Assembly (NCBI RefSeq): GCF_009931435.1
Contig: NZ_CP043414.1
From: Escherichia coli
GTDB lineage: Bacteria; Pseudomonadota; Gammaproteobacteria; Enterobacterales; Enterobacteriaceae
Length of the DNA: 64,000 nucleotides
Reading direction: 5' to 3' (one strand)
Shown here: positions 1-44,232 of the stretch, piece by piece
How the letters are laid out: every line of letters starts with the position of its first letter
Numbering within the stretch: position 1 is the first letter of the stretch
Program-made: the position numbers and the translations under genes
The notes under the pieces: generated by a model
What the model was told of the DNA's origin: nothing
Database searches by the model: none
What the model saw: only the letters and a program-made list of their open reading frames with translations

Positions 1-115
1 TGATAATAAATCATAAAATACATTCACCGAAGATATTTCTCTTTAAAGAGCGTGACATTTATAATAAGTATTGGTGAGAAAAATCACCCCCATTAATTTT
101 TATAAGGATATTCCC

Positions 116-685
116 ATGTTAAAAAAAAGTGCTATTGCTGCGGCATTAGTGATGTTCACCACTTCTGCTTTCGCGCTGGATGGCGGTCAATTAGATTTCG
201 CGGGTTTGGTGAGTGACAACACTTGCGTCTTGCACGTCAACGGTGGCGCCCAGGACGGTCAGATTACCCTGCAAACCGCCACAACCACTGAAGTTAATCA
301 GGCCGGTGTTGTCCAACTTGCCAGCCCTGGCGCAAAACCGGAAGCCTTCTCTATTACGATCGATTGCTCGGACGATCCACAGGGCGCCTCTGCCAATCTG
401 AGCATGGGTTCCGTGTTCTTCAGCAACAGTCAGGGCACTCTGAACAACGATCTCTCCATTAGCCAGGCGGCTACCGGGGTCGCGATTGCCATTCACTACC
501 TTACCGATGCCACTACCTACGAACAGATGAGAGTGAACGACAGCACTGATGTTAAAAACCTGCTGTTTACCAACGGCAAAGCGGTTTACAACTTTAAAGC
601 GTCATATGTAAAACAGGCAGCAACAGTTAACGCAACGGCAGGTTATGTCAAAACCAACGCCGCTTATACAGTGACTTACCAGTAA
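116..685 (+). CDS. yadN: Fimbrial major-subunit-like protein, first gene of the yad chaperone-usher operon
   Basis: Signal peptide MLKKSAIAAALVMFTTSAFA; fimbrial-subunit-like C-terminus (YTVTYQ); AAGGAT RBS before ATG at 116. Track start at 71 is an upstream in-frame ATG with no RBS. Confidence 0.85.
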   Translation: MLKKSAIAAALVMFTTSAFALDGGQLDFAGLVSDNTCVLHVNGGAQDGQITLQTATTTEVNQAGVVQLASPGAKPEAFSITIDCSDDPQGASANLSMGSVFFSNSQGTLNNDLSISQAATGVAIAIHYLTDATTYEQMRVNDSTDVKNLLFTNGKAVYNFKASYVKQAATVNATAGYVKTNAAYTVTYQ

Positions 686-742
686 ATATCTGCATCACCC
701 GACAGCCCACGGGCTGTTGGGTCACTCAATAAGGATAGTGTT

Positions 743-1486
743 ATGACCAGGATGTGTCAGTTTATTGTTTCCACTGCTTTCGTCGCATCGACAGCCGTTT
801 TCAGCCTCACCGCGCAAGCAGATATTGTGCTTTCCGGTACGCGCATTATTTATAATGCCGACCAGAAAGACGTCACATTGCGCATGGAAAACAAAGGTGC
901 CCGCCCACTATTAGTTCAGACCTGGATTGATACCGGCAGCGAAAATGCCGACCCCAGCACACTGAAAGTGCCTTTTACCGTGACGCCGCCGGTTTCCCGC
1001 GTTGATGGTAAAAAAGGCCAAACGGTTAAAATTGCCTGGAGCGCCAGCCAGACCCTTCCAGCCGATCGCGAAAGCGTTTATTGGTTCAATGCGCTGGAAG
1101 TTCCCCCCAAGATGAACGATGCCGATGCCAAGGGAAAAAACATTCTGCAATTGGCTTTCCGTACCCGTATCAAGCTGTTCTATCGCCCAACCGGCCTGGC
1201 GGGTAACCCGGCTGATGCACCAAAACAGTTAACCTGGCGTCTCCAGTCTTCAGCCGGAAAAGTGGTGTTGCAGGCAACAAACCCAACGCCTTATCACGTC
1301 TCATTCAGCAGTATTACCCTTGCCTCAGGCGGTAATAAATATACCGTGGAAAGCAGTATGGTCGAGCCCAAAAGCAGTGCGGAAATGGTGGTAAAAGGCG
1401 CTCCCCGTTCTGTGTCTGGCGCAACAGTTGAGTACTCAGCCATTAATGATTTTGGCGGTGGCATTGACGGCAAAGTCAAACTTTGA
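743..1486 (+). CDS. ecpD: Periplasmic pilus chaperone (PapD-like)
   Basis: 247-aa ORF with signal peptide and PapD-like chaperone N-terminal domain; sits between major subunit and usher. Also called yadV. Exact start (743 vs 752) uncertain. Confidence 0.9.
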   Translation: MTRMCQFIVSTAFVASTAVFSLTAQADIVLSGTRIIYNADQKDVTLRMENKGARPLLVQTWIDTGSENADPSTLKVPFTVTPPVSRVDGKKGQTVKIAWSASQTLPADRESVYWFNALEVPPKMNDADAKGKNILQLAFRTRIKLFYRPTGLAGNPADAPKQLTWRLQSSAGKVVLQATNPTPYHVSFSSITLASGGNKYTVESSMVEPKSSAEMVVKGAPRSVSGATVEYSAINDFGGGIDGKVKL

Positions 1487-1518
1487 TGCCCACAGACGAG
1501 ATCGGCTGAGATCGTACA

Positions 1519-4125
1519 ATGAAGATCCCCCACGATGGCAAAAGAATTCAACGATCGCCGCTCGCTTGCCTGATTGCGTGTAGCCTGCTGCCCTGCACAC
1601 AAAATGTGTGGGGGGCAAACGAGACCGTTGAGTTTGATAACACGTTCCTGATGGGCGCAGGTGCCAGAGATATTGATGTCAATCGTTACAGCAAAGGTAA
1701 CGCAACATTGCCGGGGCGCTATGACGTCAGCGTGTTTATTAATAACCAGGCCAGCGCCAATCTGAAAATCGAGTTTATTGAATTAGACCCTGAACACGCT
1801 GCTCAGCCCTGTATCTCCACCAACACATTATTACAACTGCATATTCGCCAGCCAGAAAAGTTAGCGGATAACGCAATTTTGCAAAAACGCGAAAATGCTG
1901 CGCAGGATTGCCTGAACGTAGAGGTTGCTATTCCGCAATCGAGCGTCGCTTACAATAGCAACGATCAGCGGCTTGATATCAGCATGCCGCAAATCTGGCT
2001 GCAGAGAACCTATGCCAACTATGTCGATCCGTCGCTGTGGGATGAAGGCATCAATGCCGCAATGCTCTCTTACACCCTTAACGGCTGGCGCAGTGAATCC
2101 CCCAATCAAACCACAGAAACCAGCTACGCCGGACTGATGGGCGGTATCAATTTATGGGGATGGCATTTTCGCTCACATGGTAACTATTCGTGGGACAAAG
2201 AAGACGGCGGCAGTTTTGAATTTCAGGATAAATATCTGCAACGCGATATCGCCGCGCTCCGCTCTCAGCTGGTAATGGGTGAAACCAATACCACAGGAGA
2301 AACCTTCGACTCGGTGCCTATTCGCGGGCTGCGACTCTATAGCGAAAGCCGCATGTTGCCCCCTACGCTGGCGTCGTATGCGCCTGTTATCCGTGGCGTG
2401 GCAAACTCTAACGCGAAAGTCACGATCACCCAAAACGGTTATAAAATTTATGAAACGACCGTGCCGCCTGGTCCATTCGCGATTGACGATCTCACGCCGG
2501 CAGGGTTCGGCGCCGATCTCGAGGTGACCATCACCGAATCGGACGGTTCAAAACGTACGTTTAGTCAGGCTTATTCATCGGTGATCCAGATGATGCGTCC
2601 CGGCGTGGGCAAATGGGATATCAGCGCCGGTGAGGTCAATAAAGCGGAACTCCAGGATAAACCTAACCTGCTGCAAGGTACCTACTATTACGGGTTGAGT
2701 AACACCTTCACCGGCTACACCGGCCTGCAAATGACCGATAACGGTTACTGGGCCGGTTTATTAGGGGTGGGCATGAATACATCGCTGGGCGCTTTCTCCT
2801 TCGATGTTACTCAGTCTCATGCCGAAATTCCTGACGATAAAACCTATAGTGGACAGAGTTACCGTGTTTCATGGAACAAATATTTCGCCCCGACCGAAAC
2901 CTCACTCAACATTGCCGCCTATCGCTACTCCACTGAAAACTATCTGGGGCTGAACGACGCGTTAACGCTGATTAATTCTGCCAACCATCCTGATGAAGAA
3001 GGCTATTCGGGGATTGTCAGTTATGCACGCATGAAAAATCAGTTCAGCGTTAGCATTAATCAAACGTTAAAAAGTGATGAACGTGACTATGGCTCTTTCT
3101 ATGTGAATGGCACATGGACAGATTACTGGGTAACCAACGAATCACAGAGCAGTTTTGCCTTTGGCTACAGCAATGCCTTTAACTGGGCGAGCTACAGCGT
3201 CAGCCTGCAACGGACATACGATGAAGACAATAAGAAGGATGACTCGATTTATCTGAGTGTGACCATTCCGCTTGATAAACTGCTTGGCCGCGATAGCCAT
3301 CAGGGCGGGTTCAAAACCCTGAACACCAGCGTTAACAGCGACATGAAAGGGAGCTCACAATTTAACGCCAATGCCTCGGGCTACAGCCAGGATAATCGCT
3401 GGAGTTACAGCGTGAATACCGCCTATAACGTGCAGAAAAACAGCGACAGCCTGAAAAGTATCAGCGGTTATACCAGCTATGAGTCGCCGTGGGGAACATT
3501 TTCAGGCTCAGCCTCCACCAGCAGCGATCGCTCACGTCAGTATGGGCTCAGCACCGATGGCGGTTTTGTACTCCACCGCCACGGTCTGACCTTCAGTAAC
3601 GACAGTTTTACCGACTCTGACACGTTGGCGCTGATCAACGCCCCGGGTGCAAAAGGCGCGCGCATTAACTTTGGTAACAGCACCATCGACCGTTTTGGCT
3701 ACGGCGTGACCAGTTCACTGTCACCGTACCGGGAAAATACCGTCGCGCTCGATGTTAACGATCTGGATAACGACGTGGAGCTCAAAAACACCAGTAGCGT
3801 CGCCATTCCGCGCCAGGGTTCCGTCATTTTCAGCCACTTTGACACCGATACCGGGCGCTCCGCCATTCTCAATTTACTGCGTAGCAACAATCAGCCCGTG
3901 CCGTTTGCTTCCGATATTACCGACGAAAAAGGGACCTCTATCGGGACCGTCGGTCAGGGCAGTCAGGCATTTGTACGCGGCATTGCCGACAGCGGTGAAC
4001 TGACGGTCACCTGGTATGAGAAAAATAGTCGCCAGCAGTGCCGTATTCATTATCAGATACCGTCATCACCCACCATGACCGGTAAAACCATCGTACTCAA
4101 CGGCGTGCCATGCACCCAGCAATAA
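1519..4125 (+). CDS. htrE: Outer-membrane fimbrial usher
   Basis: 868-aa ORF, usher size and position in chaperone-usher operon; start may be slightly downstream of track start. Confidence 0.9.
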   Translation: MKIPHDGKRIQRSPLACLIACSLLPCTQNVWGANETVEFDNTFLMGAGARDIDVNRYSKGNATLPGRYDVSVFINNQASANLKIEFIELDPEHAAQPCISTNTLLQLHIRQPEKLADNAILQKRENAAQDCLNVEVAIPQSSVAYNSNDQRLDISMPQIWLQRTYANYVDPSLWDEGINAAMLSYTLNGWRSESPNQTTETSYAGLMGGINLWGWHFRSHGNYSWDKEDGGSFEFQDKYLQRDIAALRSQLVMGETNTTGETFDSVPIRGLRLYSESRMLPPTLASYAPVIRGVANSNAKVTITQNGYKIYETTVPPGPFAIDDLTPAGFGADLEVTITESDGSKRTFSQAYSSVIQMMRPGVGKWDISAGEVNKAELQDKPNLLQGTYYYGLSNTFTGYTGLQMTDNGYWAGLLGVGMNTSLGAFSFDVTQSHAEIPDDKTYSGQSYRVSWNKYFAPTETSLNIAAYRYSTENYLGLNDALTLINSANHPDEEGYSGIVSYARMKNQFSVSINQTLKSDERDYGSFYVNGTWTDYWVTNESQSSFAFGYSNAFNWASYSVSLQRTYDEDNKKDDSIYLSVTIPLDKLLGRDSHQGGFKTLNTSVNSDMKGSSQFNANASGYSQDNRWSYSVNTAYNVQKNSDSLKSISGYTSYESPWGTFSGSASTSSDRSRQYGLSTDGGFVLHRHGLTFSNDSFTDSDTLALINAPGAKGARINFGNSTIDRFGYGVTSSLSPYRENTVALDVNDLDNDVELKNTSSVAIPRQGSVIFSHFDTDTGRSAILNLLRSNNQPVPFASDITDEKGTSIGTVGQGSQAFVRGIADSGELTVTWYEKNSRQQCRIHYQIPSSPTMTGKTIVLNGVPCTQQ

Positions 4126-4141
4126 TGTTCCAGGAGAGGAA

Positions 4142-4714
4142 ATGAGAGCTTTTTTACTACCGCCCCTGCTGCTGCTGACGTCGCTTTGTCTGCGCCCCGC
4201 ACTGGCAACCGATCTTTCGGTGAACTTTACCGCGACCATCAAAGAGACGACCTGTGCCATGACGCTCAACGCATTGAATGGGGCCAATATCAGCGGTGAT
4301 ACCGCAACAAATAACTATTATCTGGATCTGCCTGATATGGGTGTTTCAGACATTGTGAATAAATCGTCACTGTCGGAGGCTAATTTTAAAATCCTTGCCA
4401 GCAATTGTAATAACTATATTTCCGGCCTGTCGATGACCCTCAATGGCGCAGTCAGCAGCTATACAGATTCGTTAATCGGTAATGACCAGACCGTTTCCGG
4501 ACATACCAACTATGTTGGTCTTGGTATTAAACGTATGAACGCTGATGAAAATCTCCGCTTTAAACTCAACGGTAGCCAGCGAGTTACCTGGACGAATGAT
4601 GAAATAAGTAATGGATTAGATCTTACAGCCATGCTTCGTCAGACCACCACCGGGAATACGATCACCACAGGCCAATTCCAGGCCAAAGTGACTTTCGTCT
4701 TTACCTACCAATAG
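4142..4714 (+). CDS. yadM: Fimbrial minor-subunit-like protein
   Basis: 190-aa ORF with signal peptide, conserved Cys pair and fimbrial C-terminal strand (VTFVFTYQ). Confidence 0.85.
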   Translation: MRAFLLPPLLLLTSLCLRPALATDLSVNFTATIKETTCAMTLNALNGANISGDTATNNYYLDLPDMGVSDIVNKSSLSEANFKILASNCNNYISGLSMTLNGAVSSYTDSLIGNDQTVSGHTNYVGLGIKRMNADENLRFKLNGSQRVTWTNDEISNGLDLTAMLRQTTTGNTITTGQFQAKVTFVFTYQ

Positions 4715-4719
4715 CAGGT

Positions 4720-5322
4720 TTGTTTATGAATTATCACAATATAACCTTTGTCTTGCTGCTGTGCTTTGGATATATCGCCATCGGCCACGCCGCCAGTAGC
4801 TCTATGGACGTTACGGTACGTGCTAAGGTCACTGCCAGTACCTGCACGGCGGAATTACGCGATGCGCAGGATCAGCAAGCCACCACCATCGCTATTGGCG
4901 ATGTCTATCTCAACGAGCTTTCCGCTAAATCGAAATACCAGAACTTCAGCCTGGTGTTTTCAAACTGCGAAGGGTTAGCAAAGGATCAGGCAAAAGTTGT
5001 GCTTTCTGCACAGACGGGCTGCGATGGCGCTTCCAGTACCGGTGGCGGATACCGTAATGCACTGACGACGGCGGACGATGATGCGGCAACCGGTGTTGCG
5101 GTTGAAGTGTGGACGACCAATCAGCCAGAAGGTCAGGGCAGCATTCAGCTTAATTGTAAAACCAAACCGACCAGTATTGTTGATTTAGCTGCGGCAACAG
5201 GCTCGAATATTGTCCAATGGCCGCTCAGTGCCCGGATTGTAGTAGCTTCCGATAACACCATCGCTGATGTACGCGCCGGGCAATTCTCCACTAATGCAGT
5301 CTTTTCTGTGACCTATGAGTAG
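4720..5322 (+). CDS. yadL: Fimbrial minor-subunit-like protein
   Basis: 200-aa ORF with signal peptide and fimbrial C-terminus (AVFSVTYE). Confidence 0.85.
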   Translation: MFMNYHNITFVLLLCFGYIAIGHAASSSMDVTVRAKVTASTCTAELRDAQDQQATTIAIGDVYLNELSAKSKYQNFSLVFSNCEGLAKDQAKVVLSAQTGCDGASSTGGGYRNALTTADDDAATGVAVEVWTTNQPEGQGSIQLNCKTKPTSIVDLAAATGSNIVQWPLSARIVVASDNTIADVRAGQFSTNAVFSVTYE

Positions 5323-5895
5323 ATGATTATGAAAACAGTTATCTACATGATTGCGTTTTGGTTTTCTTACAACGTCATTGCAGCCAGTACCAATATTAAT
5401 ATGACTGCCAATATCATCAGCACCAGTTGCCGGGTCACGCTCGACAATAATGGAAATATTGATTTAGGCACAGTGGATTATAGCTATCTGAATAATAATA
5501 CCTCTGTCGATCGCGTCTATTCTGGCGGGCACCCCTTTTATATTACCGTCAGCGACTGCGCGCAGGTAGCGGGGAAAAATCCGGCCCACCTGACCGTCAG
5601 CTTTACGCCTTTGGCAGGCACCCTTGCGCCAACCAACCTCCAGGTATTCGCCAACCAGCAGGTCAACGGTGCAAAAAATGTCGGCGTGGTTATTTTATCG
5701 ACCGAGGACGCACAGCATATTTTCAATGTGCTCGACACGCGTGGTCAACCGCAAAGTATTTACCCCGTGACGCCCGAAACGATCGCTAACGCGACATACC
5801 ACTTTTACGCTCGGATGCAAAAAATTGACCCTACACAAGCGGTAACCAGCGGCGTGGTAAAAGCGAGCGTATTTGTTGGGGTTTATTATGAATAA
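5323..5895 (+). CDS. yadK: Fimbrial minor-subunit-like protein
   Basis: 190-aa ORF with signal peptide and fimbrial C-terminus (SVFVGVYYE); starts immediately after yadL stop. Confidence 0.85.
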   Translation: MIMKTVIYMIAFWFSYNVIAASTNINMTANIISTSCRVTLDNNGNIDLGTVDYSYLNNNTSVDRVYSGGHPFYITVSDCAQVAGKNPAHLTVSFTPLAGTLAPTNLQVFANQQVNGAKNVGVVILSTEDAQHIFNVLDTRGQPQSIYPVTPETIANATYHFYARMQKIDPTQAVTSGVVKASVFVGVYYE

Positions 5896-5921
5896 TCTAT
5901 ATCACTCTCAAGGATGAAGAG

Positions 5922-7154
5922 ATGAACACGCAATACTTTTCCCGGTCTAAGCAGTGGTGTCGAACACTGCTGGTTCTGTTGTCCTTCTATTCAGGCTGCC
6001 TGCACTCTGCCAACACAATAATCGTCGGCAACAAAACCTATTCAGGTTCGACGGAAAATAATTCCGGTCCACAGGGGGATGGCAGCGCAACGGCAACGTT
6101 CAGTACCGGGGCAAATCAGATAGTGATCCCAACCTCAGCGGGGCTACAAAGTAGCAACATCAGGCTCCAGCTGGGTTGGGTGGATACAAACTCATCAGGA
6201 AATAGCCTGATTTACTGTGGCGCTGGCGGAATGGGAACACCATTAACCCTGGAGAGCCATTTCGTTGATGCTCTGGTGAGTGCAGATGGCCACAAGCTCT
6301 TTAAAACCAATGTGCAGGGTCTCTACTTCAGGATGCACATGTACAATGTAAGCTCATTCAAAACAACCTCCAGCAGCGATATCTATATCGGTGATACCCC
6401 CCAACAAACATTGACATTAACGCCCGAGCATTCCGTATGCGTCGCCGATCTGGGGAATTACACAGCCGTAGGCGGTCTGGTCAGTAAAATTGATATTGAG
6501 TTTTATAATGATGGCACCTTCAATCCCAATACGACAGGTAGCATCGCTTTACTGAGCAACAAGGGATATCACTATTCAGTGACAAATGCAGCGCCTGGTG
6601 GTGCATTGACATCGCACTATATTTATCAGACGTTCAACATGGGGAATGTTACGCTTAGCTCGCCAACCTGTACCTCAGCGGTCGTTTCGGGGAATACAGT
6701 TCAGGGAGATACAGTCAGCCTCGGTGAATACAACCCCAAAGACATCCTTGATGGCGTTGACGGTATCCCTTTTGGTATAGCACTAAAGAACTGTTTCCGG
6801 GTCACCAATATCGAGGTCAAAATGACTACCGGCGCCCCTGCAATGTCGGCTGCGTTATTGGGTAACTCGTTAACCGCCGAAGCCAATGCCGCCAACGGCG
6901 TAGGCGTGGAGATAAAAGGAAAATCGAACTCACATTATGCCGAGGTAGTTCTTCACCCTAATGACACCCATTCTGTTTATAAAGCCTATGTCGATACAGC
7001 TGACACGTCGAATGGCATTATTGGTTCAGGCACATCGGGAACCGCAGCAAATCAAACGCTAAATTTTGTCGCCACTCTCAAACAAGACAACAATCAACAA
7101 ATCAGAGGCGGGGATTTCAAAGCGACCGCCGTTTTCTCTATCACCTACCCCTGA
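5922..7154 (+). CDS. yadC: Fimbrial tip adhesin-like protein (two-domain)
   Basis: 410-aa ORF, last gene of operon, pilin-like C-terminus (AVFSITYP) plus larger N-terminal domain. Confidence 0.85.
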   Translation: MNTQYFSRSKQWCRTLLVLLSFYSGCLHSANTIIVGNKTYSGSTENNSGPQGDGSATATFSTGANQIVIPTSAGLQSSNIRLQLGWVDTNSSGNSLIYCGAGGMGTPLTLESHFVDALVSADGHKLFKTNVQGLYFRMHMYNVSSFKTTSSSDIYIGDTPQQTLTLTPEHSVCVADLGNYTAVGGLVSKIDIEFYNDGTFNPNTTGSIALLSNKGYHYSVTNAAPGGALTSHYIYQTFNMGNVTLSSPTCTSAVVSGNTVQGDTVSLGEYNPKDILDGVDGIPFGIALKNCFRVTNIEVKMTTGAPAMSAALLGNSLTAEANAANGVGVEIKGKSNSHYAEVVLHPNDTHSVYKAYVDTADTSNGIIGSGTSGTAANQTLNFVATLKQDNNQQIRGGDFKATAVFSITYP

Positions 7155-7162
7155 GCCCCGCT

Positions 7163-7187
7163 ACCGGCAGGCCCCCTGCCGGTTTTG
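7163..7187 (+). terminator. Rho-independent terminator after yadC
   Basis: Stem ACCGGCAGG / CCTGCCGGT followed by TTTT, directly downstream of yadC stop. Confidence 0.7.
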
Positions 7188-7271
7188 ACCACAAAGGGCT
7201 AACACTCATCACTGACATCCCCTACAATGCGCCAATCCTATAGATAACACTTATGACTAACAGGGGTTATG

Positions 7272-8066
7272 ATGAAACCGACCACCATCTCCTTGCTGAA
7301 CAAATACAAACAAGAAAAAAAACGCTTCGCCACTATTACCGCTTACGACTACAGCTTCGCTAAATTGTTTGCCGAAGAAGGACTTAACGTGATGTTGGTT
7401 GGCGATTCGCTGGGCATGACTGTTCAGGGGCACGACTCCACACTCCCGGTAACCGTTCAAGATATCGCCTACCACACTGCTGCCGTACGTCGTGGCGCAC
7501 CAAATTGCCTGCTGCTGGCCGACCTGCCGTTTATGGCGTACTCCACCCCGGAACAGGCCTTTGAAAATGCCGCCACAGTAATGCGTGCCGGAGCCAATAT
7601 GGTCAAAATTGAAGGCGGCGCATGGTTGGTTGAGACGGTACAAATGCTGACTGAACGCGCAGTTCCGGTGTGTGGTCATTTAGGTTTAACCCCACAGTCA
7701 GTGAATATATTTGGCGGCTACAAAGTACAAGGGCGTGGCGATGAAGCGGGCGATCAACTGCTCAGCGATGCGTTAGCCTTAGAAGCCGCTGGTGCACAGT
7801 TGCTGGTGCTGGAATGCGTGCCGGTTGAACTGGCGAAACGCATTACCGAAGCGCTGGCGATTCCGGTAATCGGTATTGGCGCGGGCAACGTCACCGACGG
7901 GCAAATCCTCGTGATGCACGACGCGTTCGGTATTACCGGCGGCCATATCCCTAAATTTGCAAAAAATTTCCTTGCTGAAGCGGGCGACATCCGCGCAGCA
8001 GTGCGTCAGTATATAGCTGAAGTGGAGTCCGGTGTTTATCCGGGCGAAGAACACAGTTTCCATTAA
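7272..8066 (+). CDS. panB: 3-methyl-2-oxobutanoate hydroxymethyltransferase
   Basis: Translation begins [33 protein letters not shown], matching PanB; start set to second Met (264 aa). Confidence 0.97.
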
Positions 8067-9149: not shown

Positions 9150-10070
9150 TTAGTTAAACAGCTTATCAAGCTCAGCAAGAGGTAAATTTGCCATCTCTGC
9201 AACGTCTTCCCGAGACATTCCTTTACTCAGAAGACGCAGGGCGAATTCTTGCCTTTCCTCCTGTCTTCCCAGCTGAATCCCCTTCTCAATCCCCTTCTCA
9301 ATTCCCTTCTCAATTCCCTTCTCTTCAAACCACTGCGCCAACGTCATCATAGACTCCCCTCCCGTTTCCCTGTCTCTCACCACACCATAAAACAAATCCG
9401 CTTGTTCAGTATGACCGCGTTGCAGCATATAGTTTTGCATGGCAACTAACTGACTTCCGCTAGTGTACCCTTCGTCAATCAGCGTGACCAGTTGCTCCAG
9501 CAATAACATTAAGTCGCGCTGGCGAATATGTTTTTGCAGCAGTTCGAGAATCGCAATCCGCCGATGTTGCATGATTTCGTCATCCGGTGTGATAGTGATA
9601 TCCACCAGCGGGAAAGGACTGTTATAGACGCGTCGCGCCAGCTCCGGCGAGTAAAACATATCAAACCAGCACATTGAGAGCGGATAAGGTGTGGCCTCGC
9701 CCTGATAAAACAGAATCGGCACCACCAGCGGCAGCTTATCGTGATCTGCCTCCAGATGCCGGTGCATGGCAGCAATAGAATAACGCATCATGCGAAACGC
9801 CATTTTTTTATCCGGCTTGCTTTGGTGTTCAATCACAACATGTAGATAGCCCGTATTACCCTGCATTTGCACGGAATAGAGCACGTCAGTGCTGTGCCCT
9901 TTCAGGCTTTCTTCAATAAAACTCCCCGACTCAAGATGCAGCGTGTCGAGGTCACACAGTTCGCGTAGCTCCGCTGGCAAATGGATATCCAGAAAGTCGC
10001 GAGCCGTTTCCGCGTGCATTAAAAATTGTTTAAACACCGCATCATGCGGTGTGGTACTCGGTGCATCCAT
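9150..10070 (-). CDS. rpnC: Recombination-promoting nuclease, Rpn/YhgA-like (PD-(D/E)XK, transposase_31 family)
   Basis: 306-aa ORF with Rpn-family N-terminus and C-terminal EKGI tetrapeptide repeats; position between panC and panD as for yadD/rpnC. Exact start uncertain. Confidence 0.85.
   Translation of the reverse strand: MDAPSTTPHDAVFKQFLMHAETARDFLDIHLPAELRELCDLDTLHLESGSFIEESLKGHSTDVLYSVQMQGNTGYLHVVIEHQSKPDKKMAFRMMRYSIAAMHRHLEADHDKLPLVVPILFYQGEATPYPLSMCWFDMFYSPELARRVYNSPFPLVDITITPDDEIMQHRRIAILELLQKHIRQRDLMLLLEQLVTLIDEGYTSGSQLVAMQNYMLQRGHTEQADLFYGVVRDRETGGESMMTLAQWFEEKGIEKGIEKGIEKGIQLGRQEERQEFALRLLSKGMSREDVAEMANLPLAELDKLFN
9278..9323 (-). repeat. In-frame 12-bp tandem repeat (about 3.8 copies) inside rpnC, encoding (EKGI)n
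   Basis: TCCCCTTCTCAA x2, TTCCCTTCTCAA, then partial copy; translated on minus strand as GIEKGIEKGIEKGI. Confidence 0.9.
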
Positions 10071-37538: not shown

Positions 37539-38086
37539 GTTGTCTCCTTGCTGACCAGGGCGCGAAACCGTGCCCAATCAAAGGCGGGGCCGGGATCGGT
37601 TTTCCGATCCGGCGCAATATCACAATGGCCCGTCATGTTATTAGCGATATCTGGATAGCGATCAATCAGTGCCCGCGTAACCGCCGCAAGCTGTTGATAC
37701 TGCGCATCGGTATACGCCAGCGTATCGGTGCCTTCCAGCTCAATCCCAATAGAAAAATCATTGCAGCGTTCGCGCCCCTGATACTGAGAGACTCCGGCAT
37801 GCCAGGCACGTTTATCGAAAGGAACATACTGGACTATTTCACCATCGCGGCGAATCAAACAGTGAGCGGAGACGCGCAAATGGGCGATCTCAGCAAAGAA
37901 AGGATGTGCCTGCGGATCAATAGTTCCAGTGAATAATGCGTCGATCCACGGACCGCCAAACTCGCCTGGCGGCAGGCTAATATTGTGCACCACCAGCAGG
38001 GTGGGTGTTTCGTCATCCGGGCGGCAATCGTAATGTGGTGAGGGAACGCGGCGCGCGCCAACCAGCCACCCCTGTTCTAACAACAT
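37535..38086 (-). CDS. ampD: 1,6-anhydro-N-acetylmuramyl-L-alanine amidase
   Basis: 183 aa, [25 protein letters not shown]; amidase_2 family. Confidence 0.95.
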
Positions 38087-38113
38087 GCAGGATCTCCTTA
38101 TATGTGGTGCTAA

Positions 38114-39067
<954 letters not shown>

Positions 39068-39269
39068 TTGCTGACAGATTTATCCGCTCCATCGCGGGCG
39101 GATAATCTCCCCTTTCCCAACTTTCTTCGTAACGCCTCGCAAATTTCTTGTCTTTCGCTGCAACGTAATAAAAAACTCCGGAAGCTGCTTTCCCGTTTCG
39201 TTTTTTGCCCCTCGCTTGTGCTGATGGCGTTTGCCAAAGTAGCGCCAACCAAATCAAGGAGCGAAACAA

Positions 39270-39710
39270 ATGGACAAGCAACGCGGTTTTACACTTATCG
39301 AACTGATGGTGGTTATTGGCATCATTGCCATTTTAAGCGCCATTGGTATTCCCGCTTATCAAAACTACCTGCGCAAAGCCGCACTCACCGACATGCTACA
39401 AACCTTTGTGCCTTACCGTACCGCCGTAGAGTTGTGCGCGCTGGAACATGGTGGATTAGATACCTGCGACGGTGGCAGCAATGGCATTCCCTCGCCTACC
39501 ACCACCCGCTATGTTTCAGCCATGAGTGTGGCAAAGGGCGTGGTGTCGCTGACCGGGCAAGAAAGTCTCAATGGGCTAAGCGTCGTTATGACACCGGGTT
39601 GGGATAACGCAAACGGCGTCACCGGCTGGACGCGCAACTGCAATATTCAAAGTGACAGCGCATTGCAGCAAGCCTGCGAAGATGTCTTTCGCTTTGATGA
39701 CGCCAACTAA
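39270..39710 (+). CDS. ppdD: Type IV prepilin (prepilin peptidase-dependent pilin)
   Basis: 146 aa; MDKQRG-FTLIELMVVIGIIAILSAIGIP prepilin leader and hydrophobic N-terminal helix. Confidence 0.9.
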   Translation: MDKQRGFTLIELMVVIGIIAILSAIGIPAYQNYLRKAALTDMLQTFVPYRTAVELCALEHGGLDTCDGGSNGIPSPTTTRYVSAMSVAKGVVSLTGQESLNGLSVVMTPGWDNANGVTGWTRNCNIQSDSALQQACEDVFRFDDAN

Positions 39711-39719
39711 GGAGCGGCA

Positions 39720-41117
39720 ATGAATATTCCACAGCTCACCGCCCTGTGTCTGCGTTATCAGGGAGTCTTGCTGGATGCCAGCGAAGAGGTGGTTCATGTT
39801 GCGGTGGTTGATGCCCCTTCGCATGAGCTACTGGACGCATTGCATTTCGCTACCACCAAACGTATTGAGATCACCTGCTGGACGCGCCAACAAATGGAAG
39901 GTCACGCCAGTCGCACCCAACAGACATTGCCCGTAGCTATTCATGAGAAGCATCAGCCCAAAGCAGAGTTGCTGACTCGAACGTTACAATCTGCGCTGGA
40001 ACAACGCGCGTCTGATATTCATATCGAACCAGCGGACAATGCCTACCGCATCCGCTTGCGTATCGACGGTGTATTGCATCCTTTACCGGATGTTTTACCG
40101 GATGTTTTACCGGATGCCGGAGTCGCATTAACCGCCAGATTAAAAGTGCTGGGCAACCTGGATATTGCGGAACATCGCCTGCCGCAGGACGGGCAATTCA
40201 CTGTCGAACTGGCAGGAAACGCCGTCTCATTTCGTATTGCGACCTTACCATGCCAGGGTGGTGAAAAGGTGGTATTAAGGTTGTTACAGCAGGTGAGCCA
40301 GGCACTGGATATCAACACGCTGGGGATGCAGCCGTTACAACTGGCGGACTTTGCTCATGCCTTGCAACAACCACAGGGACTGGTGCTGGTAACTGGCCCT
40401 ACAGGCAGCGGCAAAACGGTCACGCTTTATAGTGCCCTGCAAACGCTGAATACCGCTGACATTAATATTTGTAGCGTCGAAGATCCGGTTGAGATCCCCA
40501 TAGCCGGACTAAACCAGACGCAAATCCATCCGCGTGCCGGTCTTACCTTTCAGGGCGTTTTGCGTGCGTTATTGCGCCAGGACCCTGACGTCATCATGAT
40601 CGGAGAGATCCGCGATGGCGAAACAGCAGAGATCGCTATTAAAGCGGCGCAAACCGGTCACCTGGTGTTGTCTACCCTACACACCAATTCCACCACTGAA
40701 ACGCTGGTACGTTTACAGCAAATGGGAGTCGCCCGCTGGATGCTCTCATCGGCGCTTACGCTGGTAATAGCCCAGCGTCTGGTACGCAAACTTTGCCCGC
40801 ATTGTCGCCAGCAGCAAGGGGAGCCCATCCATATTCCAGACAATGTATGGCCGTCGCCGCTGCCCCGCTGGCAAGCACCCGGTTGTGTACATTGCTACCA
40901 CGGTTTTTATGGTCGCACGGCCTTATTTGAAGTTCTGCCCATAACACCGTTCATACGTCAGCTTATTTCCGCTAATACCGACGTTGAATCGCTGGAAACG
41001 CACGCCCGACAGGCGGGTATGCGAACGCTTTTTGAAAACGGCTGCCTGGCCGTGGAGCAAGGCTTAACCACCTTTGAAGAGTTAATCCGCGTATTGGGAA
41101 TGCCGTATGGCGAGTAA
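39720..41117 (+). CDS. hofB: Type IV pilus assembly ATPase (GspE/PilB family)
   Basis: 465 aa; Walker A GPTGSGKT; C-terminal CxxC pairs; follows ppdD. Confidence 0.9.
   Translation: MNIPQLTALCLRYQGVLLDASEEVVHVAVVDAPSHELLDALHFATTKRIEITCWTRQQMEGHASRTQQTLPVAIHEKHQPKAELLTRTLQSALEQRASDIHIEPADNAYRIRLRIDGVLHPLPDVLPDVLPDAGVALTARLKVLGNLDIAEHRLPQDGQFTVELAGNAVSFRIATLPCQGGEKVVLRLLQQVSQALDINTLGMQPLQLADFAHALQQPQGLVLVTGPTGSGKTVTLYSALQTLNTADINICSVEDPVEIPIAGLNQTQIHPRAGLTFQGVLRALLRQDPDVIMIGEIRDGETAEIAIKAAQTGHLVLSTLHTNSTTETLVRLQQMGVARWMLSSALTLVIAQRLVRKLCPHCRQQQGEPIHIPDNVWPSPLPRWQAPGCVHCYHGFYGRTALFEVLPITPFIRQLISANTDVESLETHARQAGMRTLFENGCLAVEQGLTTFEELIRVLGMPYGE
40083..40118 (+). repeat. In-frame 12-bp tandem repeat (3 copies) in hofB encoding LPDV-LPDV-LPDA
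   Basis: TTACCGGATGTT x2 then TTACCGGATGCC. Confidence 0.9.
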
Positions 41118-42309
41118 GCAACTCTGGCGCTGGCGTGGCATAACCGGCGACGGCAATGCGCAAGATGGGATGCTATGGGCAGAGAGCCGTGCTTTGCTGC
41201 TCATAGCACTACAGCAACAGATGGTTACCCCACTTAGCCTGAAGCGAATCGCCATCAATTCTGCGCAGTGGCGAGGAGATAAAAGCGCGGAAGTCATTCA
41301 TCAACTGGCGACGCTACTCAAAGCCGGGTTAACGCTTTCTGAAGGGCTGGCACTGCTGGCGGAACAGCATCCCAGTAAGCAATGGCAAGCGTTGCTGCAA
41401 TCGCTGGCGCACGATCTCGAACAGGGCATTGCTTTTTCCAATGCCTTATTACCCTGGTCAGAGGTATTTCCGCCGCTCTATCAGGCAATGATCCGCACGG
41501 GGGAATTGACTGGTAAGTTAGATGAATGTTGCTTTGAACTTGCTCGACAGCAAAAAGCCCAACGTCAGTTAGCCGATAAAGTGAAATCAGCGTTGCGTTA
41601 TCCCATCATCATTTTAGCGATGGCAATCATGGTGGTTGTGGCAATGCTGCATTTTGTACTGCCGGAGTTTGCTGCTATCTACAAGACCTTTAACACCCCA
41701 TTACCGGCGCTAACGCAGGGGATCATGACGCTGGCAGACTTTAGTGGCGAATGGGGCTGGCTGCTGCTGTTGTTCGGCTTACTGCTGGCAATAGCCAATA
41801 AGTTGCTGGTGCGCCGCCCGACCTGGCTCATCGTGAGGCAAAAATCACTGTTACGCATCCCAATTATGGGTTCACTGATGCGAGGGCAAAAACTCACGCA
41901 GATCTTTACGATTCTGGCGCTGACACAAAGTGCAGGCATTACTTTTTTACAGGGCGTAGAGAGCGTCAGAGCAACAATGCGCTGTCAGTACTGGGAGCAA
42001 CTTCTGACACAAATCCAGCACGATATCAGTAACGGTCATCCTATCTGGCTGGCGCTAAAAAATGCCGGTGAGTTTAGCCCGCTCTGTTTGCAATTAGTGA
42101 GAACAGGAGAGGCATCCGGTTCGCTGGATCTCATGTTAGACAACCTCGCCCGTCATCATCGGGATAACACCATGGCGCTGGCGGATAACCTTGCAGCCTT
42201 GCTCGAACCGGTGTTGCTGGTCATAACGGGAGGAATTATCGGTACGCTAGTGGTGGCAATGTATTTGCCAATTTTCCATTTAGGCGATGCGATGAGTGGG
42301 ATGGGATAA
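41107..42309 (+). CDS. hofC: Type IV pilus inner-membrane platform protein (GspF/PilC family)
   Basis: 400 aa; 11-nt overlap with hofB; GspF-like membrane protein. Confidence 0.9.
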   Translation: MASKQLWRWRGITGDGNAQDGMLWAESRALLLIALQQQMVTPLSLKRIAINSAQWRGDKSAEVIHQLATLLKAGLTLSEGLALLAEQHPSKQWQALLQSLAHDLEQGIAFSNALLPWSEVFPPLYQAMIRTGELTGKLDECCFELARQQKAQRQLADKVKSALRYPIIILAMAIMVVVAMLHFVLPEFAAIYKTFNTPLPALTQGIMTLADFSGEWGWLLLLFGLLLAIANKLLVRRPTWLIVRQKSLLRIPIMGSLMRGQKLTQIFTILALTQSAGITFLQGVESVRATMRCQYWEQLLTQIQHDISNGHPIWLALKNAGEFSPLCLQLVRTGEASGSLDLMLDNLARHHRDNTMALADNLAALLEPVLLVITGGIIGTLVVAMYLPIFHLGDAMSGMG

Positions 42310-42310
42310 C

Positions 42311-42334
42311 GCTGGCGTGTTACTCCACGCCAGC
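42311..42334. terminator. Hairpin between convergent hofC and guaC
   Basis: GCTGGCGTG-TTACTC-CACGCCAGC perfect 9-bp stem; weak U-tract. Confidence 0.45.
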
Positions 42335-42343
42335 ATTGGGAGA

Positions 42344-43387
42344 TTACAGATTGTTGAAGATGCGGTTTTCTTGTTCCTGTACACGGATAAATGTGGTGCG
42401 CTTGGTCAGCTCTTTCAGGCGTGCAGCCCCAACGTATGTACAAGCTGAACGCAGGCCGCCCAAAATATCACGCGCGGTATTTTCAACCGGGCCTCGCAGC
42501 GGCAGCTTAACGGTTTTACCTTCTGCTGCGCGATATTCCGCAACGCCGCCAACGTGACGTTTCATCGCAGACTCGGAGCTCATGCCGTAGAACAGCATAA
42601 ATTTCTCGCCGTTCTCCTCAACGATGCGACCACCGCTCTCTTCGTGGCCCGCCAGCATGCCGCCAAGCATGACGAAATCGGCACCGCCGCCAAAGGCTTT
42701 CGCGACATCGCCCGGCGTGGTGCAGCCACCGTCGCTGACGATCATTCCGCCCAGACCATGCGCAGCATCGGCACATTCGATCACCGCAGAAAGTTGCGGA
42801 TAACCGACGCCTGTTTTGACGCGAGTTGTACAAACAGAACCTGGGCCAATGCCAACTTTAACGATATCAGCACCGGAGAGGATAAGCTCCTCACACATTT
42901 CACCTGTCACGACGTTGCCAGCACAAATGGTTTTGGTCGGCCACGCTTCACGCGCTTTCGCAACGAACTGCACGAAGTGTTCGGAATAACCATTCGCCAC
43001 GTCAATACAAACGAAGTTTAATGCCGGGTTCAGGTCGAGAATCTGTTTAGTTTTTTCGAAGTCCGCATCAGACGTACCGGTAGAAACCATCACATGTTTC
43101 AGCACATCAGCGGAAGAATTGTTGATAAACGCTTGCCACTCTTCGACAGAATAGTGTTTATGCACAGCAGTCAGAATATCAAAAGAAGCCAGCGCAGAGG
43201 CCATAGAAAATGTGCCTACGGTGTCCATATTTGCGGCGATAATCGGCACGCCGGACCAGCTCTGACCTGAATGTTTGAAGGTGAATTGACGTTCCAGTTC
43301 AACATCGGAACGGCTTTTAAGAGTGGAGCGTTTAGGGCGGATGAGAACGTCTTTAAAACCTAACTTCAGATCTTCTTCAATACGCAT
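42344..43387 (-). CDS. guaC: GMP reductase
   Basis: 347 aa; IMPDH/GMPR family with active-site Cys in [11 protein letters not shown]. Confidence 0.95.
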
Positions 43388-43611
43388 GTGCGGATTCCTG
43401 GGGTTAATGGCTATAAGGGTAAGAGCGCAACTCCAGTGACGCTATCATACGCACTAATCAATGCGGCGCAAGACTGCGAAATTGTCTTTTTTTACGCTAC
43501 AATCCCATAAATTTACCTGGTAAATAGTGAGCGAACGTTTCATCAATTTCGCTTTCGTGCGCTCATTTTTAACGTTTTGATAATCATGATGAATTCCCGG
43601 GAATATAAATT

Positions 43612-44232
43612 ATGAGGTATATAGTTGCCTTAACGGGAGGCATTGGCAGTGGCAAGAGTACCGTTGCCAATGCGTTTGCTGATCTCGGAATTAACGTCAT
43701 TGATGCCGATATTATTGCGCGTCAGGTGGTTGAACCAGGTGCACCTGCGCTACATGCAATTGCTGATCACTTTGGCGCTAACATGATTGCTGCTGATGGA
43801 ACATTGCAGCGCCGGGCCTTGCGCGAGCGGATTTTCGCCAACCCGGAAGAGAAAAACTGGCTTAACGCCCTGCTGCATCCGCTGATTCAGCAAGAGACGC
43901 AACACCAGATCCAGCAAGCATCTTCCCCCTATGTACTTTGGGTTGTGCCATTGCTGGTAGAAAACTCATTGTATAAAAAAGCGAATCGAGTGCTGGTGGT
44001 GGATGTCAGCCCAGAAACGCAACTTAAACGCACCATGCAGCGCGATGATGTCACTCGCGAGCATGTTGAACAAATTCTTGCTGCTCAGGCAACGCGCGAA
44101 GCCCGCCTTGCCGTGGCAGATGACGTCATTGATAATAACGGCGCACCGGATGCTATCGCATCGGATGTTGCCCGCCTGCACGCACACTATTTGCAGCTTG
44201 CGTCGCAGTTTGTCTCACAGGAAAAACCGTAA
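43612..44232 (+). CDS. coaE: Dephospho-CoA kinase
   Basis: 206 aa; P-loop GGIGSGKST. Confidence 0.95.

Follow-up and report, generated by a model that had tools for sequence, protein, structure and literature searches.

The ppdD-hofB-hofC operon of Escherichia coli: pilin, extension ATPase and platform of the enterobacterial type IVa pilus

Introduction

The closest described relative of the locus considered here is the ppdD-hofB-hofC operon of Escherichia coli K-12 (b0108-b0106), which has the same position between nadC and guaC, the same gene order, the same 9-nt spacer and the same 11-nt overlap as its counterpart in the window, the 64,000-nucleotide stretch of E. coli DNA under analysis. 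The two upstream regions, CRP-S site included, are nearly identical and the PpdD proteins are 100% identical; in comparison with K-12, HofB of the window carries 13 substitutions and a 4-residue insertion, and HofC 18 substitutions. In EHEC O157:H7, the corresponding operon is hcpABC (haemorrhagic coli pilus; PDB 6GV9, 6GMS), with which the window shares 139 of 140 mature pilin residues (6GV9 chain A), the disulfide cysteines and the calcium-site and interface residues; the single difference is at mature residue 115, where PpdD of the window has Thr instead of Ala.

Further afield are the canonical type IVa pili of Pseudomonas aeruginosa (pilA/pilBCD) and the PilB and PilC proteins of Myxococcus and Geobacter; HofB aligns with PilB, all motifs included, and HofC with PilC. 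By comparison with these systems, the N-terminus of HofB is ~100-120 residues shorter and its score falls under the equivalog cut-off, the E. coli peptidase is unlinked, and PpdD is unusually conserved, type IV pilins being typically hypervariable. The competence operon pilABCD of Haemophilus influenzae includes, by its name, the prepilin peptidase gene pilD. Unlike it, the E. coli operon lacks a peptidase gene and depends on GspO or PppA, which are encoded in type II secretion clusters; the two operons nevertheless share the pilin-ATPase-platform order and the same CRP-S/Sxy control (PMC1635313).

The locus in the window is, with a probability of about 95%, the chromosomal E. coli ppdD-hofB-hofC operon (hcpABC in EHEC), encoding the major pilin, extension ATPase and inner-membrane platform of the enterobacterial type IVa pilus. 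As annotation this is nothing new: the operon is already annotated in K-12, its pilin filament has been solved by cryo-EM, a preliminary description drawn from the raw sequence had read the locus accurately, and the operon is ordinary and intact here, save for a rare insertion in HofB. The question for specialists is what has led E. coli to retain a system for piliation and DNA uptake that is tightly conserved and hardly ever expressed; possibly relevant to it are an inverted pilin/motor conservation, conserved blocks upstream of ppdD, accessory peptidases and the rare loop-length allele of HofB.

Locus layout and genomic setting

Three open reading frames without internal stops lie on the plus strand, at the coordinates given in the preliminary description:

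39270-39710, plus strand: ppdD, type IVa major prepilin of 146 aa (6-aa leader MDKQRG and 140-aa mature pilin)
39720-41117, plus strand: hofB, assembly ATPase of the GspE/PilB family, 465 aa
41107-42309, plus strand: hofC, inner-membrane platform protein of the GspF/PilC family, 400 aa
41107-41117, plus strand: hofB/hofC overlap of 11 nt, ATGGCGAGTAA, annotated likewise in K-12

Their identities as pilin, ATPase and platform, proposed in that description, are borne out by Pfam and NCBIfam matches, and nothing contradicting any of the three gene identities was met. The reading frames had also been said to overlap; this holds for hofB and hofC, where the 11-nt overlap is consistent with translational coupling, but not for ppdD and hofB, which are separated by a 9-nt spacer containing a Shine-Dalgarno sequence.

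The operon is flanked by nadC and guaC, in a window of E. coli core genome that is collinear with K-12 from ~92.8 to 149.6 kb and free of large insertions; the other 7.3 kb of the window is a chaperone-usher fimbrial operon. The locus was found in 5424 of 5426 complete E. coli genomes, and the order ampD-nadC-ppdD-hofB-hofC-guaC is kept in 80 Enterobacteriaceae species.

The major pilin PpdD

PpdD opens with MDKQRG/FTLIELMVV, the G-F cleavage site noticed earlier, which places Gly at -1, Phe at +1 and Glu at +5. The protein thus has a class III signal peptide, in which a short basic leader with a terminal Gly is followed by Phe+1 and Glu+5 within a hydrophobic N-terminal helix (MDKQRG/FTLIELMVVIGIIAIL). 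It matches Pfam N_methyl (E = 2.5e-10), TIGR02532 (35.9 bits, cut-off 16.3) and the NCBIfam equivalog NF007862 (269.3 bits, cut-off 138), and the chain of the EHEC subunit in 6GV9 begins at F7 of the precursor. Cysteines C50, C60, C118 and C130 (disulfide pairs C50-C60 and C118-C130) are present, as are all the calcium-site and interface residues as published (residue list from bioRxiv 10.1101/2021.04.14.439816). In K-12, processed PpdD is made after Sxy induction (PMC3330819). The low dS of ppdD (0.02) hinted at recombinational import, an idea that was rejected because the value is not distinctive, ftsA, lpxC and ftsQ being equally low.

The motor HofB and the platform HofC

HofB matches Pfam T2SSE (E = 5.7e-145) and the HofB-specific equivalog NF007755 (812.2 bits, cut-off 617). 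It harbors a Walker A motif (GPTGSGKT, residues 226-233), an Asp box (EDPVE at 254), a Walker B motif (VIMIGEIRD, residues 291-299), a His box (VLSTLHTN, residues 316-323) and a tetracysteine motif (CPHC at 359 and CVHC at 389); the catalytic motifs are invariant across 76 orthologues. The closest solved structures are PilB proteins, with which HofB aligns over the N2 and C-terminal ATPase domains, and its AlphaFold model has a mean pLDDT of 82.7. Scores against the canonical equivalogs are under the cut-off both for PilB (TIGR02538, 482.9 bits, cut-off 675.65) and for GspE (TIGR02533, 452.6 bits, cut-off 630.25); HofB therefore belongs to an enterobacterial subfamily of its own, PilB-like in its working.

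HofC matches Pfam T2SSF in two stretches (E = 2.2e-56) and the equivalog NF007861 (654 bits, cut-off 401), and has three hydrophobic segments (~159-192, 212-237 and 355-395). Two T2SSF domains, three membrane-spanning segments and the equivalog match together characterise a GspF/PilC platform; the best solved relative is PilC, with a match to the Myxococcus protein in 3JC8. The HofC sequence is identical to that of strain MFDS1019527.

The RefSeq product name of HofB, “type II secretion system protein GspE”, together with its near-equal sub-threshold scores against PilB and GspE, could be taken to mark the module as a type II secretion system fragment and PpdD as a pseudopilin rather than the builder of a type IV pilus. 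Such a reading is extremely improbable: PpdD forms a genuine type IVa filament solved by cryo-EM, from which the window pilin differs at one of 140 residues, the best solved relatives of HofB and HofC are PilB and PilC, linked GspC, GspD, GspL and GspM genes are absent, and the partner operon hofMNOPQ belongs to the PilMNOPQ type.

A repeat expansion in HofB

The rare insertion in HofB maps to a short repeat detected with Tandem Repeats Finder:

40082-40116, plus strand: perfect 12-bp tandem repeat TTTACCGGATGT, 2.9 copies, encoding (PDVL)n

In-frame expansion of this repeat adds 4 residues (122-125), giving a HofB of 465 aa against 461 in other alleles, and appears as a 12-nt gap when hofB is aligned with K-12 or with the best-matching genome. 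Among the matches listed, the 69-bp two-copy allele is present in 60 of the 60 E. coli genomes spanning the repeat, and none of these 60 complete genomes has the three-copy allele (37 more full-coverage records lie beyond the matches listed). The exact 465-aa HofB was found in NCBI on 16 contigs, so the allele persists in a lineage.

The added residues sit in a loop between a strand (118-121) and a helix (131-144), where pLDDT is ~66 in the AlphaFold model; loop length is identical in the other 77 sequences compared, none of which has the insertion. Four extra residues in a length-invariant loop could impair HofB, and the machine of this strain might be affected if the additional PDVL unit, by lengthening the N2-domain loop, disturbed hexamer packing or ATPase coupling. 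The rarity of the insertion, missing from both the 77 other HofB sequences and the 60 spanning E. coli genomes among the matches listed, speaks for such an effect, as does the location of the loop immediately ahead of helix 131-144, the helix from which the chain runs on into the conserved RLPQDG motif. On the other side, the insertion preserves the reading frame, the loop varies in sequence and already exceeds the length of the equivalent PilB loop, its modest predicted confidence is of a kind often seen for flexible surface loops, and the exact allele recurs on the 16 contigs; impairment is accordingly unlikely, and the operon is read here as intact.

Dispersed partners of the pilus machine

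As the preliminary description had stated, no prepilin peptidase or secretin gene adjoins the module, nor is there one anywhere in the 64-kb window; alignment-complex and minor-pilin genes are likewise absent from the window, and the collinear K-12 range (~92.8-149.6 kb) contains no peptidase or secretin gene. The locus is not a self-contained type IV pilus cluster, in which peptidase, secretin, alignment complex and minor pilins would be encoded together. The reliance on unlinked genes that had been proposed agrees with K-12, in which the genes for these components lie in unlinked operons at ~2.96, 3.11, 3.47 and 3.52 Mb. The term “minimal module” used for the locus is better replaced: it is one of several dispersed loci that jointly form a 13-gene type IVa pilus system comprising ppdD-hofBC, hofMNOPQ, ppdAB-ygdB-ppdC and gspO (bioRxiv 10.1101/856302). 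The PilMNOPQ-type operon hofMNOPQ is found in 5425 of 5426 E. coli genomes, and ppdAB-ygdB-ppdC likewise in 5425 of 5426. Both known peptidase genes are accessory, gspO occurring in 58% and pppA in 67% of genomes. For this strain, a peptidase, a secretin and minor pilins are presumed from the distribution of such genes across the species.

Upstream region and control

The region preceding ppdD contains the following elements:

39123-39144, no strand assigned: putative CRP-S site of 22 bp, TTCTTCGTAAC/GCCTCGCAAAT, with C6 in both half-sites and an exact match to TTTGCGA in the right half
39158-39244, plus strand: conserved blocks CTGCAAC, an A-run, GAA-N8-TTC, TTTTTGCCCCTCGC and TGCCAAAGTAGCG, from the family-wide conservation profile, between the CRP-S site and the ribosome-binding site
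39256-39261, plus strand: Shine-Dalgarno sequence of ppdD, AAGGAG, ~90-99% conserved across 81 upstream regions

A CRP-S site is a 22-bp CRP site in which half-site position 6 is C and never T (PMC1635313). The sequence of the site is the same in K-12 and falls within the K-12 EMSA fragment that bound CRP, the primers of which map to positions 39056-39186 of the window (PMC1635313). Sites with at most two mismatches occur in 59 of 81 Enterobacteriaceae upstream regions, 58 of the 59 at 130-146 bp before the ATG and 49 of the 59 with C6 in both halves; with at most one mismatch, the site is present in 36% of upstream regions and in 0.6% of shuffled ones. As the core pattern with two mismatches has 31 matches in the window against 45 expected, which is not above chance, the site is accepted solely on the strength of its conserved position and of the CRP binding already published. 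In K-12, ppdD is induced 90-fold by Sxy, with CRP and cAMP required (PMC1635313); the putative site at its conserved position is in keeping with this published control of ppdD by Sxy and CRP.

A consensus scan returned 0 sigma-70 promoter-like sites against 2.9 expected, and placing -10 and -35 elements by eye relative to the CRP-S site gave no convincing arrangement. Intrinsic terminator-like sites number 6 against 4.5 expected, a chance level. An RNA element in or near the operon was also considered and rejected, a permissive-threshold Rfam search over 38000-44000 having given nothing; RNAalifold found no structure shared by 22 leaders, and for the GAA-N8-TTC palindrome, as a hairpin, covariation does not go beyond that of shuffles, so that the hairpin is not counted as a demonstrated structure. 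The ppdD leader of the window itself folds marginally better than shuffles (z = -1.78).

Proposed mechanism

The operon had been described as generally silent in the laboratory, which agrees with the literature: PpdD is made by 0 of 72 ECOR strains (PMC3330819). Transcription of ppdD-hofBC would be off in ordinary culture and on when cAMP-CRP and Sxy (TfoX), the co-activator of competence, act at 39123-39144; the site is seen in this sequence, while its activity is as published for K-12. PpdD prepilin would be inserted in the inner membrane, where GspO or PppA, encoded elsewhere, would cleave it after Gly6 and N-methylate Phe1, a step that we infer from the motif and the literature. Homology and the published 13-gene system suggest that hexameric HofB would then hydrolyse ATP and, via HofC, drive the assembly of mature PpdD into a helical filament. 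[quoted passage not shown] The filament may serve DNA uptake, with DNA as nutrient, as well as adhesion in EHEC and UPEC according to the literature. The link to DNA uptake drawn in the preliminary description has a published basis: DNA uptake in E. coli is induced when Sxy is expressed (PMC3330819).

Conservation and selection

By comparison with K-12, DNA identity is 99.5% for ppdD, 95.7% for hofB and 94.7% for hofC, and dN/dS is 0, 0.127 and 0.110, respectively; all three genes are intact and subject to purifying selection. Evolution is faster in HofB and HofC than in their neighbours. This faster evolution, together with the lack of laboratory expression, the absence of PpdD from all 72 ECOR strains (PMC3330819) and the failure to find a sigma-70 consensus promoter upstream of ppdD, could be seen as marking a cryptic gene set in decay, without function and retained by chance only. 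We regard decay as highly improbable, given three intact reading frames in the window, hofB and hofC matched at full or near-full length in 72 of 75 non-Escherichia loci, dN/dS of ~0.11-0.13 or lower, catalytic motifs that are all invariant, conservation of both the CRP-S regulatory site and the Shine-Dalgarno sequence, and the near-universal presence of the locus in the species (5424 of 5426 genomes). Published work points the same way: Sxy induces pilin production and DNA uptake (PMC3330819), and UPEC mutants of the partner secretin gene hofQ have a kidney-colonisation defect.

For the operon as a maintained pilus locus, the distribution of constraint among its products is unusual. Over 73 non-Escherichia Enterobacteriaceae species, median identity is 85% for PpdD, 66% for HofB and 59% for HofC; PpdD is more conserved than its own ATPase and platform in all 73 species, at a level equal to that of the housekeeping neighbours NadC and AmpD. 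The usual pattern in type IV pili is the reverse. One tentative explanation, to which we give a rather low chance, places the source of the constraint on PpdD outside its own machine: the pilin might need to remain compatible with more than one apparatus (the Hof system and both type II secretion systems, alpha and beta, along with the peptidases of the latter), or it might bind a conserved ligand, for example DNA. Either demand would leave HofB and HofC free to co-evolve fast. As a smaller variant of this explanation, the perfect 12-bp repeat in hofB might be a length-variable site that tunes motor activity.

The ppdD-hofB-hofC Operon and Its Dispersed Partners

The genes ppdD (major pilin), hofB (assembly ATPase) and hofC (inner-membrane platform) form an already known locus, which the preliminary description rightly read as a minimal type IV pilus module; a mechanical ORF listing finds them consecutive on the same strand, at exactly the coordinates first proposed. 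The best explanation of the whole mechanism, to which we give a probability of about 95%, is a dispersed type IVa pilus machine induced by Sxy/CRP. The operon would be switched on by Sxy together with cAMP-CRP, and, going by homology or the literature, a peptidase encoded elsewhere (GspO or PppA) would process PpdD and a HofB hexamer would polymerise it via HofC, with probable roles in DNA uptake and adhesion. The sequence analysis itself demonstrates intact genes, the motifs, the regulatory site, conservation and the scattered layout. Minor pilins, HofMNOP and the secretin HofQ, all from unlinked genes, would complete the machine; a published gene list of the pilus system comprises 13 genes (bioRxiv 10.1101/856302).

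Features of the locus (window coordinates)
39123-39144: CRP-S site, 22 bp, TTCTTCGTAAC followed by GCCTCGCAAAT
39270-39710, + strand: ppdD, 146 aa (ORF listing)
ppdD-hofB spacer: 9 nt, contains AAGGAG
39720-41117, + strand: hofB, 465 aa (ORF listing)
40082-40116: perfect 12-bp tandem repeat in hofB, TTTACCGGATGT, 2.9 copies, codons ~121-133
hofB-hofC overlap: 11 nt, ATGGCGAGTAA
41107-42309, + strand: hofC, 400 aa (ORF listing)

The overlap of reading frames, described for the module as a whole, exists between hofB and hofC and not between ppdD and hofB, which are separated by the spacer. HofB (461/465 aa) and HofC (400 aa) share one 90%-identity cluster in a protein database, likely an artefact that arises where gene calling fuses the two ORFs or reads through their 11-nt overlap.

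The window belongs to the E. coli core genome; it runs in the opposite orientation to the K-12 sequence and is collinear with ~92.8-149.6 kb of it, with no insertion above ~120 bp in the collinear part. Upstream of the operon lie aroP, ampE, ampD and nadC; downstream, the convergent guaC is followed by coaE, zapD, yacG, mutT and secA. The missing prepilin peptidase and secretin, first noted for the immediate surroundings, are absent from the entire 64-kb window, as are PilMNOP-like and minor-pilin genes, and the expected unlinked partners are found in K-12 at 2.96 Mb (ppdAB-ygdB-ppdC), 3.11 Mb (pppA), 3.47 Mb (gspO) and 3.52 Mb (hofMNOPQ). Of the 5426 complete E. coli genomes, 5424 carry the 3.3-kb locus, and hofMNOPQ and ppdAB-ygdB-ppdC are present in 5425/5426 each; the two known prepilin peptidase genes are accessory (K-12-type gspO 3159/5426, pppA 3640/5426; queries L087:3544-4221 and L088:4544-5353 against E. 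coli complete genomes). A species-level scan of 80 loci (Escherichia, Citrobacter, Salmonella, Klebsiella, Enterobacter, Kluyvera, Kosakonia, Raoultella and others) finds the order ampD-nadC-ppdD-hofB-hofC-guaC in all of them, as far as the contig reaches.

Pilin, ATPase and Platform

PpdD begins with a class III (prepilin) signal (Gly-1, Phe+1, Glu+5), and the G-F cleavage site previously reported reads MDKQRG/FTLIELMVV at its N-terminus. It carries Pfam N_methyl and a weak Pilin match, scores 269 bits against the NCBIfam equivalog NF007862 (cut-off 138) and is 100% identical to K-12 PpdD, the two differences in ppdD being synonymous. Mature PpdD shares 139 of 140 residues with the EHEC pilin in the cryo-EM filament structure 6GV9, whose chain begins at precursor F7, in agreement with cleavage after G6; it retains all four cysteines (C50/C60 and C118/C130) and every residue published as part of the calcium site or the interfaces.

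The GspE- and GspF-type assignments are borne out by Pfam T2SSE in HofB (E = 5.7e-145) and two stretches of T2SSF in HofC. HofB scores 812 bits against NF007755 (cut-off 617) and harbors Walker A (GPTGSGKT, 226-233), Asp box, Walker B, His box and a CPHC...CVHC tetracysteine motif, the ATPase motifs being unchanged across 76 orthologues; HofC scores 654 bits against NF007861 (cut-off 401), has three hydrophobic segments and matches Myxococcus PilC. The RefSeq name of HofB, "GspE", would suit a fragment of a type II secretion system, a reading that is extremely improbable: the name is misleading, and the pilin builds a solved type IVa filament. The nearest solved relatives of HofB are PilB ATPases (Geobacter, Myxococcus), then GspE.

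The tandem repeat in hofB encodes PDVLPDVLPD and adds four residues (LPDV/PDVL), giving 465 rather than 461 aa. K-12 and the best-matching genomes have one unit fewer, as do 60/60 of the listed E. coli complete genomes spanning the site; exactly this 465-aa protein is encoded on 16 contigs in NCBI. An AlphaFold model (mean pLDDT 82.7) places the insertion in a loop that joins strand 118-121 to helix 131-144; the loop is variable in sequence, but its length is constant among the 77 other sequences in the comparison. That these four residues impair HofB in this strain is unlikely. Such side observations at this locus are modest leads, not discoveries.

Selection and Conservation

All three genes are under purifying selection, weaker than that on most housekeeping neighbours, with dN/dS versus K-12 of 0 (ppdD), 0.127 (hofB) and 0.110 (hofC). 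Decay of the operon into a remnant is highly unlikely, given these ratios, the intact genes and the conserved regulatory signals. Median identity across non-Escherichia loci is 85% for PpdD, 66% for HofB and 59% for HofC, compared with 86% for NadC, 85% for AmpD and 92% for GuaC; PpdD changes about as fast as the adjoining housekeeping genes. Its conservation exceeds that of both HofB and HofC in 73/73 non-Escherichia species or loci where all three proteins were comparable (drawn from the Enterobacteriaceae loci L010-L084); type IV pili usually show the opposite pattern.

Regulation

The nadC-ppdD spacer (202 bp) is nearly identical to that of K-12. Its CRP-S site has C at position 6 in both half-sites and an exact TTTGCGA in the right half, which is the published definition (PMC1635313), and falls within a K-12 fragment (primers mapping to 39056-39186) that bound CRP in EMSA (PMC1635313). 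As a bare pattern, CRP-S is not above chance across the window; support from phylogenetic footprinting is strong. A site with at most two mismatches to TGCGA-N6-TCGCA occurs in 59/81 upstream regions, 58 of the 59 lying 130-146 bp before the ATG; at most one mismatch is seen in 36% of upstream regions versus 0.6% of shuffled ones, and a locus from Klebsiella, L030, shows no mismatch at all at the conserved position. No sigma-70 consensus promoter was detected, which fits an activator-dependent, otherwise silent promoter. Sxy induces ppdD 90-fold, with full dependence on CRP and cAMP (PMC1635313); the silence in the laboratory and the link to DNA uptake noted earlier agree with published work, in which PpdD was detected in 0/72 ECOR strains without Sxy and Sxy expression induced DNA uptake (PMC3330819). 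Downstream of the CRP-S site and ahead of the Shine-Dalgarno sequence, 39158-39244 contains family-conserved blocks (CTGCAAC, an A-run, GAA-N8-TTC, TTTTTGCCCCTCGC and TGCCAAAGTAGCG), with no consensus RNA structure, covariation, Rfam match or recognisable sigma-70 promoter.

Strain Lineage and Remaining Window

The strain's lineage is uncommon; over the ppdD-hofB-hofC locus, the best-matching complete genome is 99.4% identical. At the yad position, adjoining panB, a chaperone-usher fimbrial operon (1-7270: subunit, PapD-type chaperone, usher, more subunits and an adhesin-like protein of 410 aa) gives no blastn hit to K-12 yadN-yadC; it is a rare, very divergent allele, covered over at least 80% of its length in 14/5426 complete genomes (best identity 97.8%). 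Divergence from K-12 is unusually high nearby, in panB (7272-8066; dS 0.64, nucleotide identity 88%), and yacH (25777-27522; 581 versus 617 aa) and rpnC (9150-10070; 306 versus 300 aa) differ in length, which together suggests local recombination or repeat variation.
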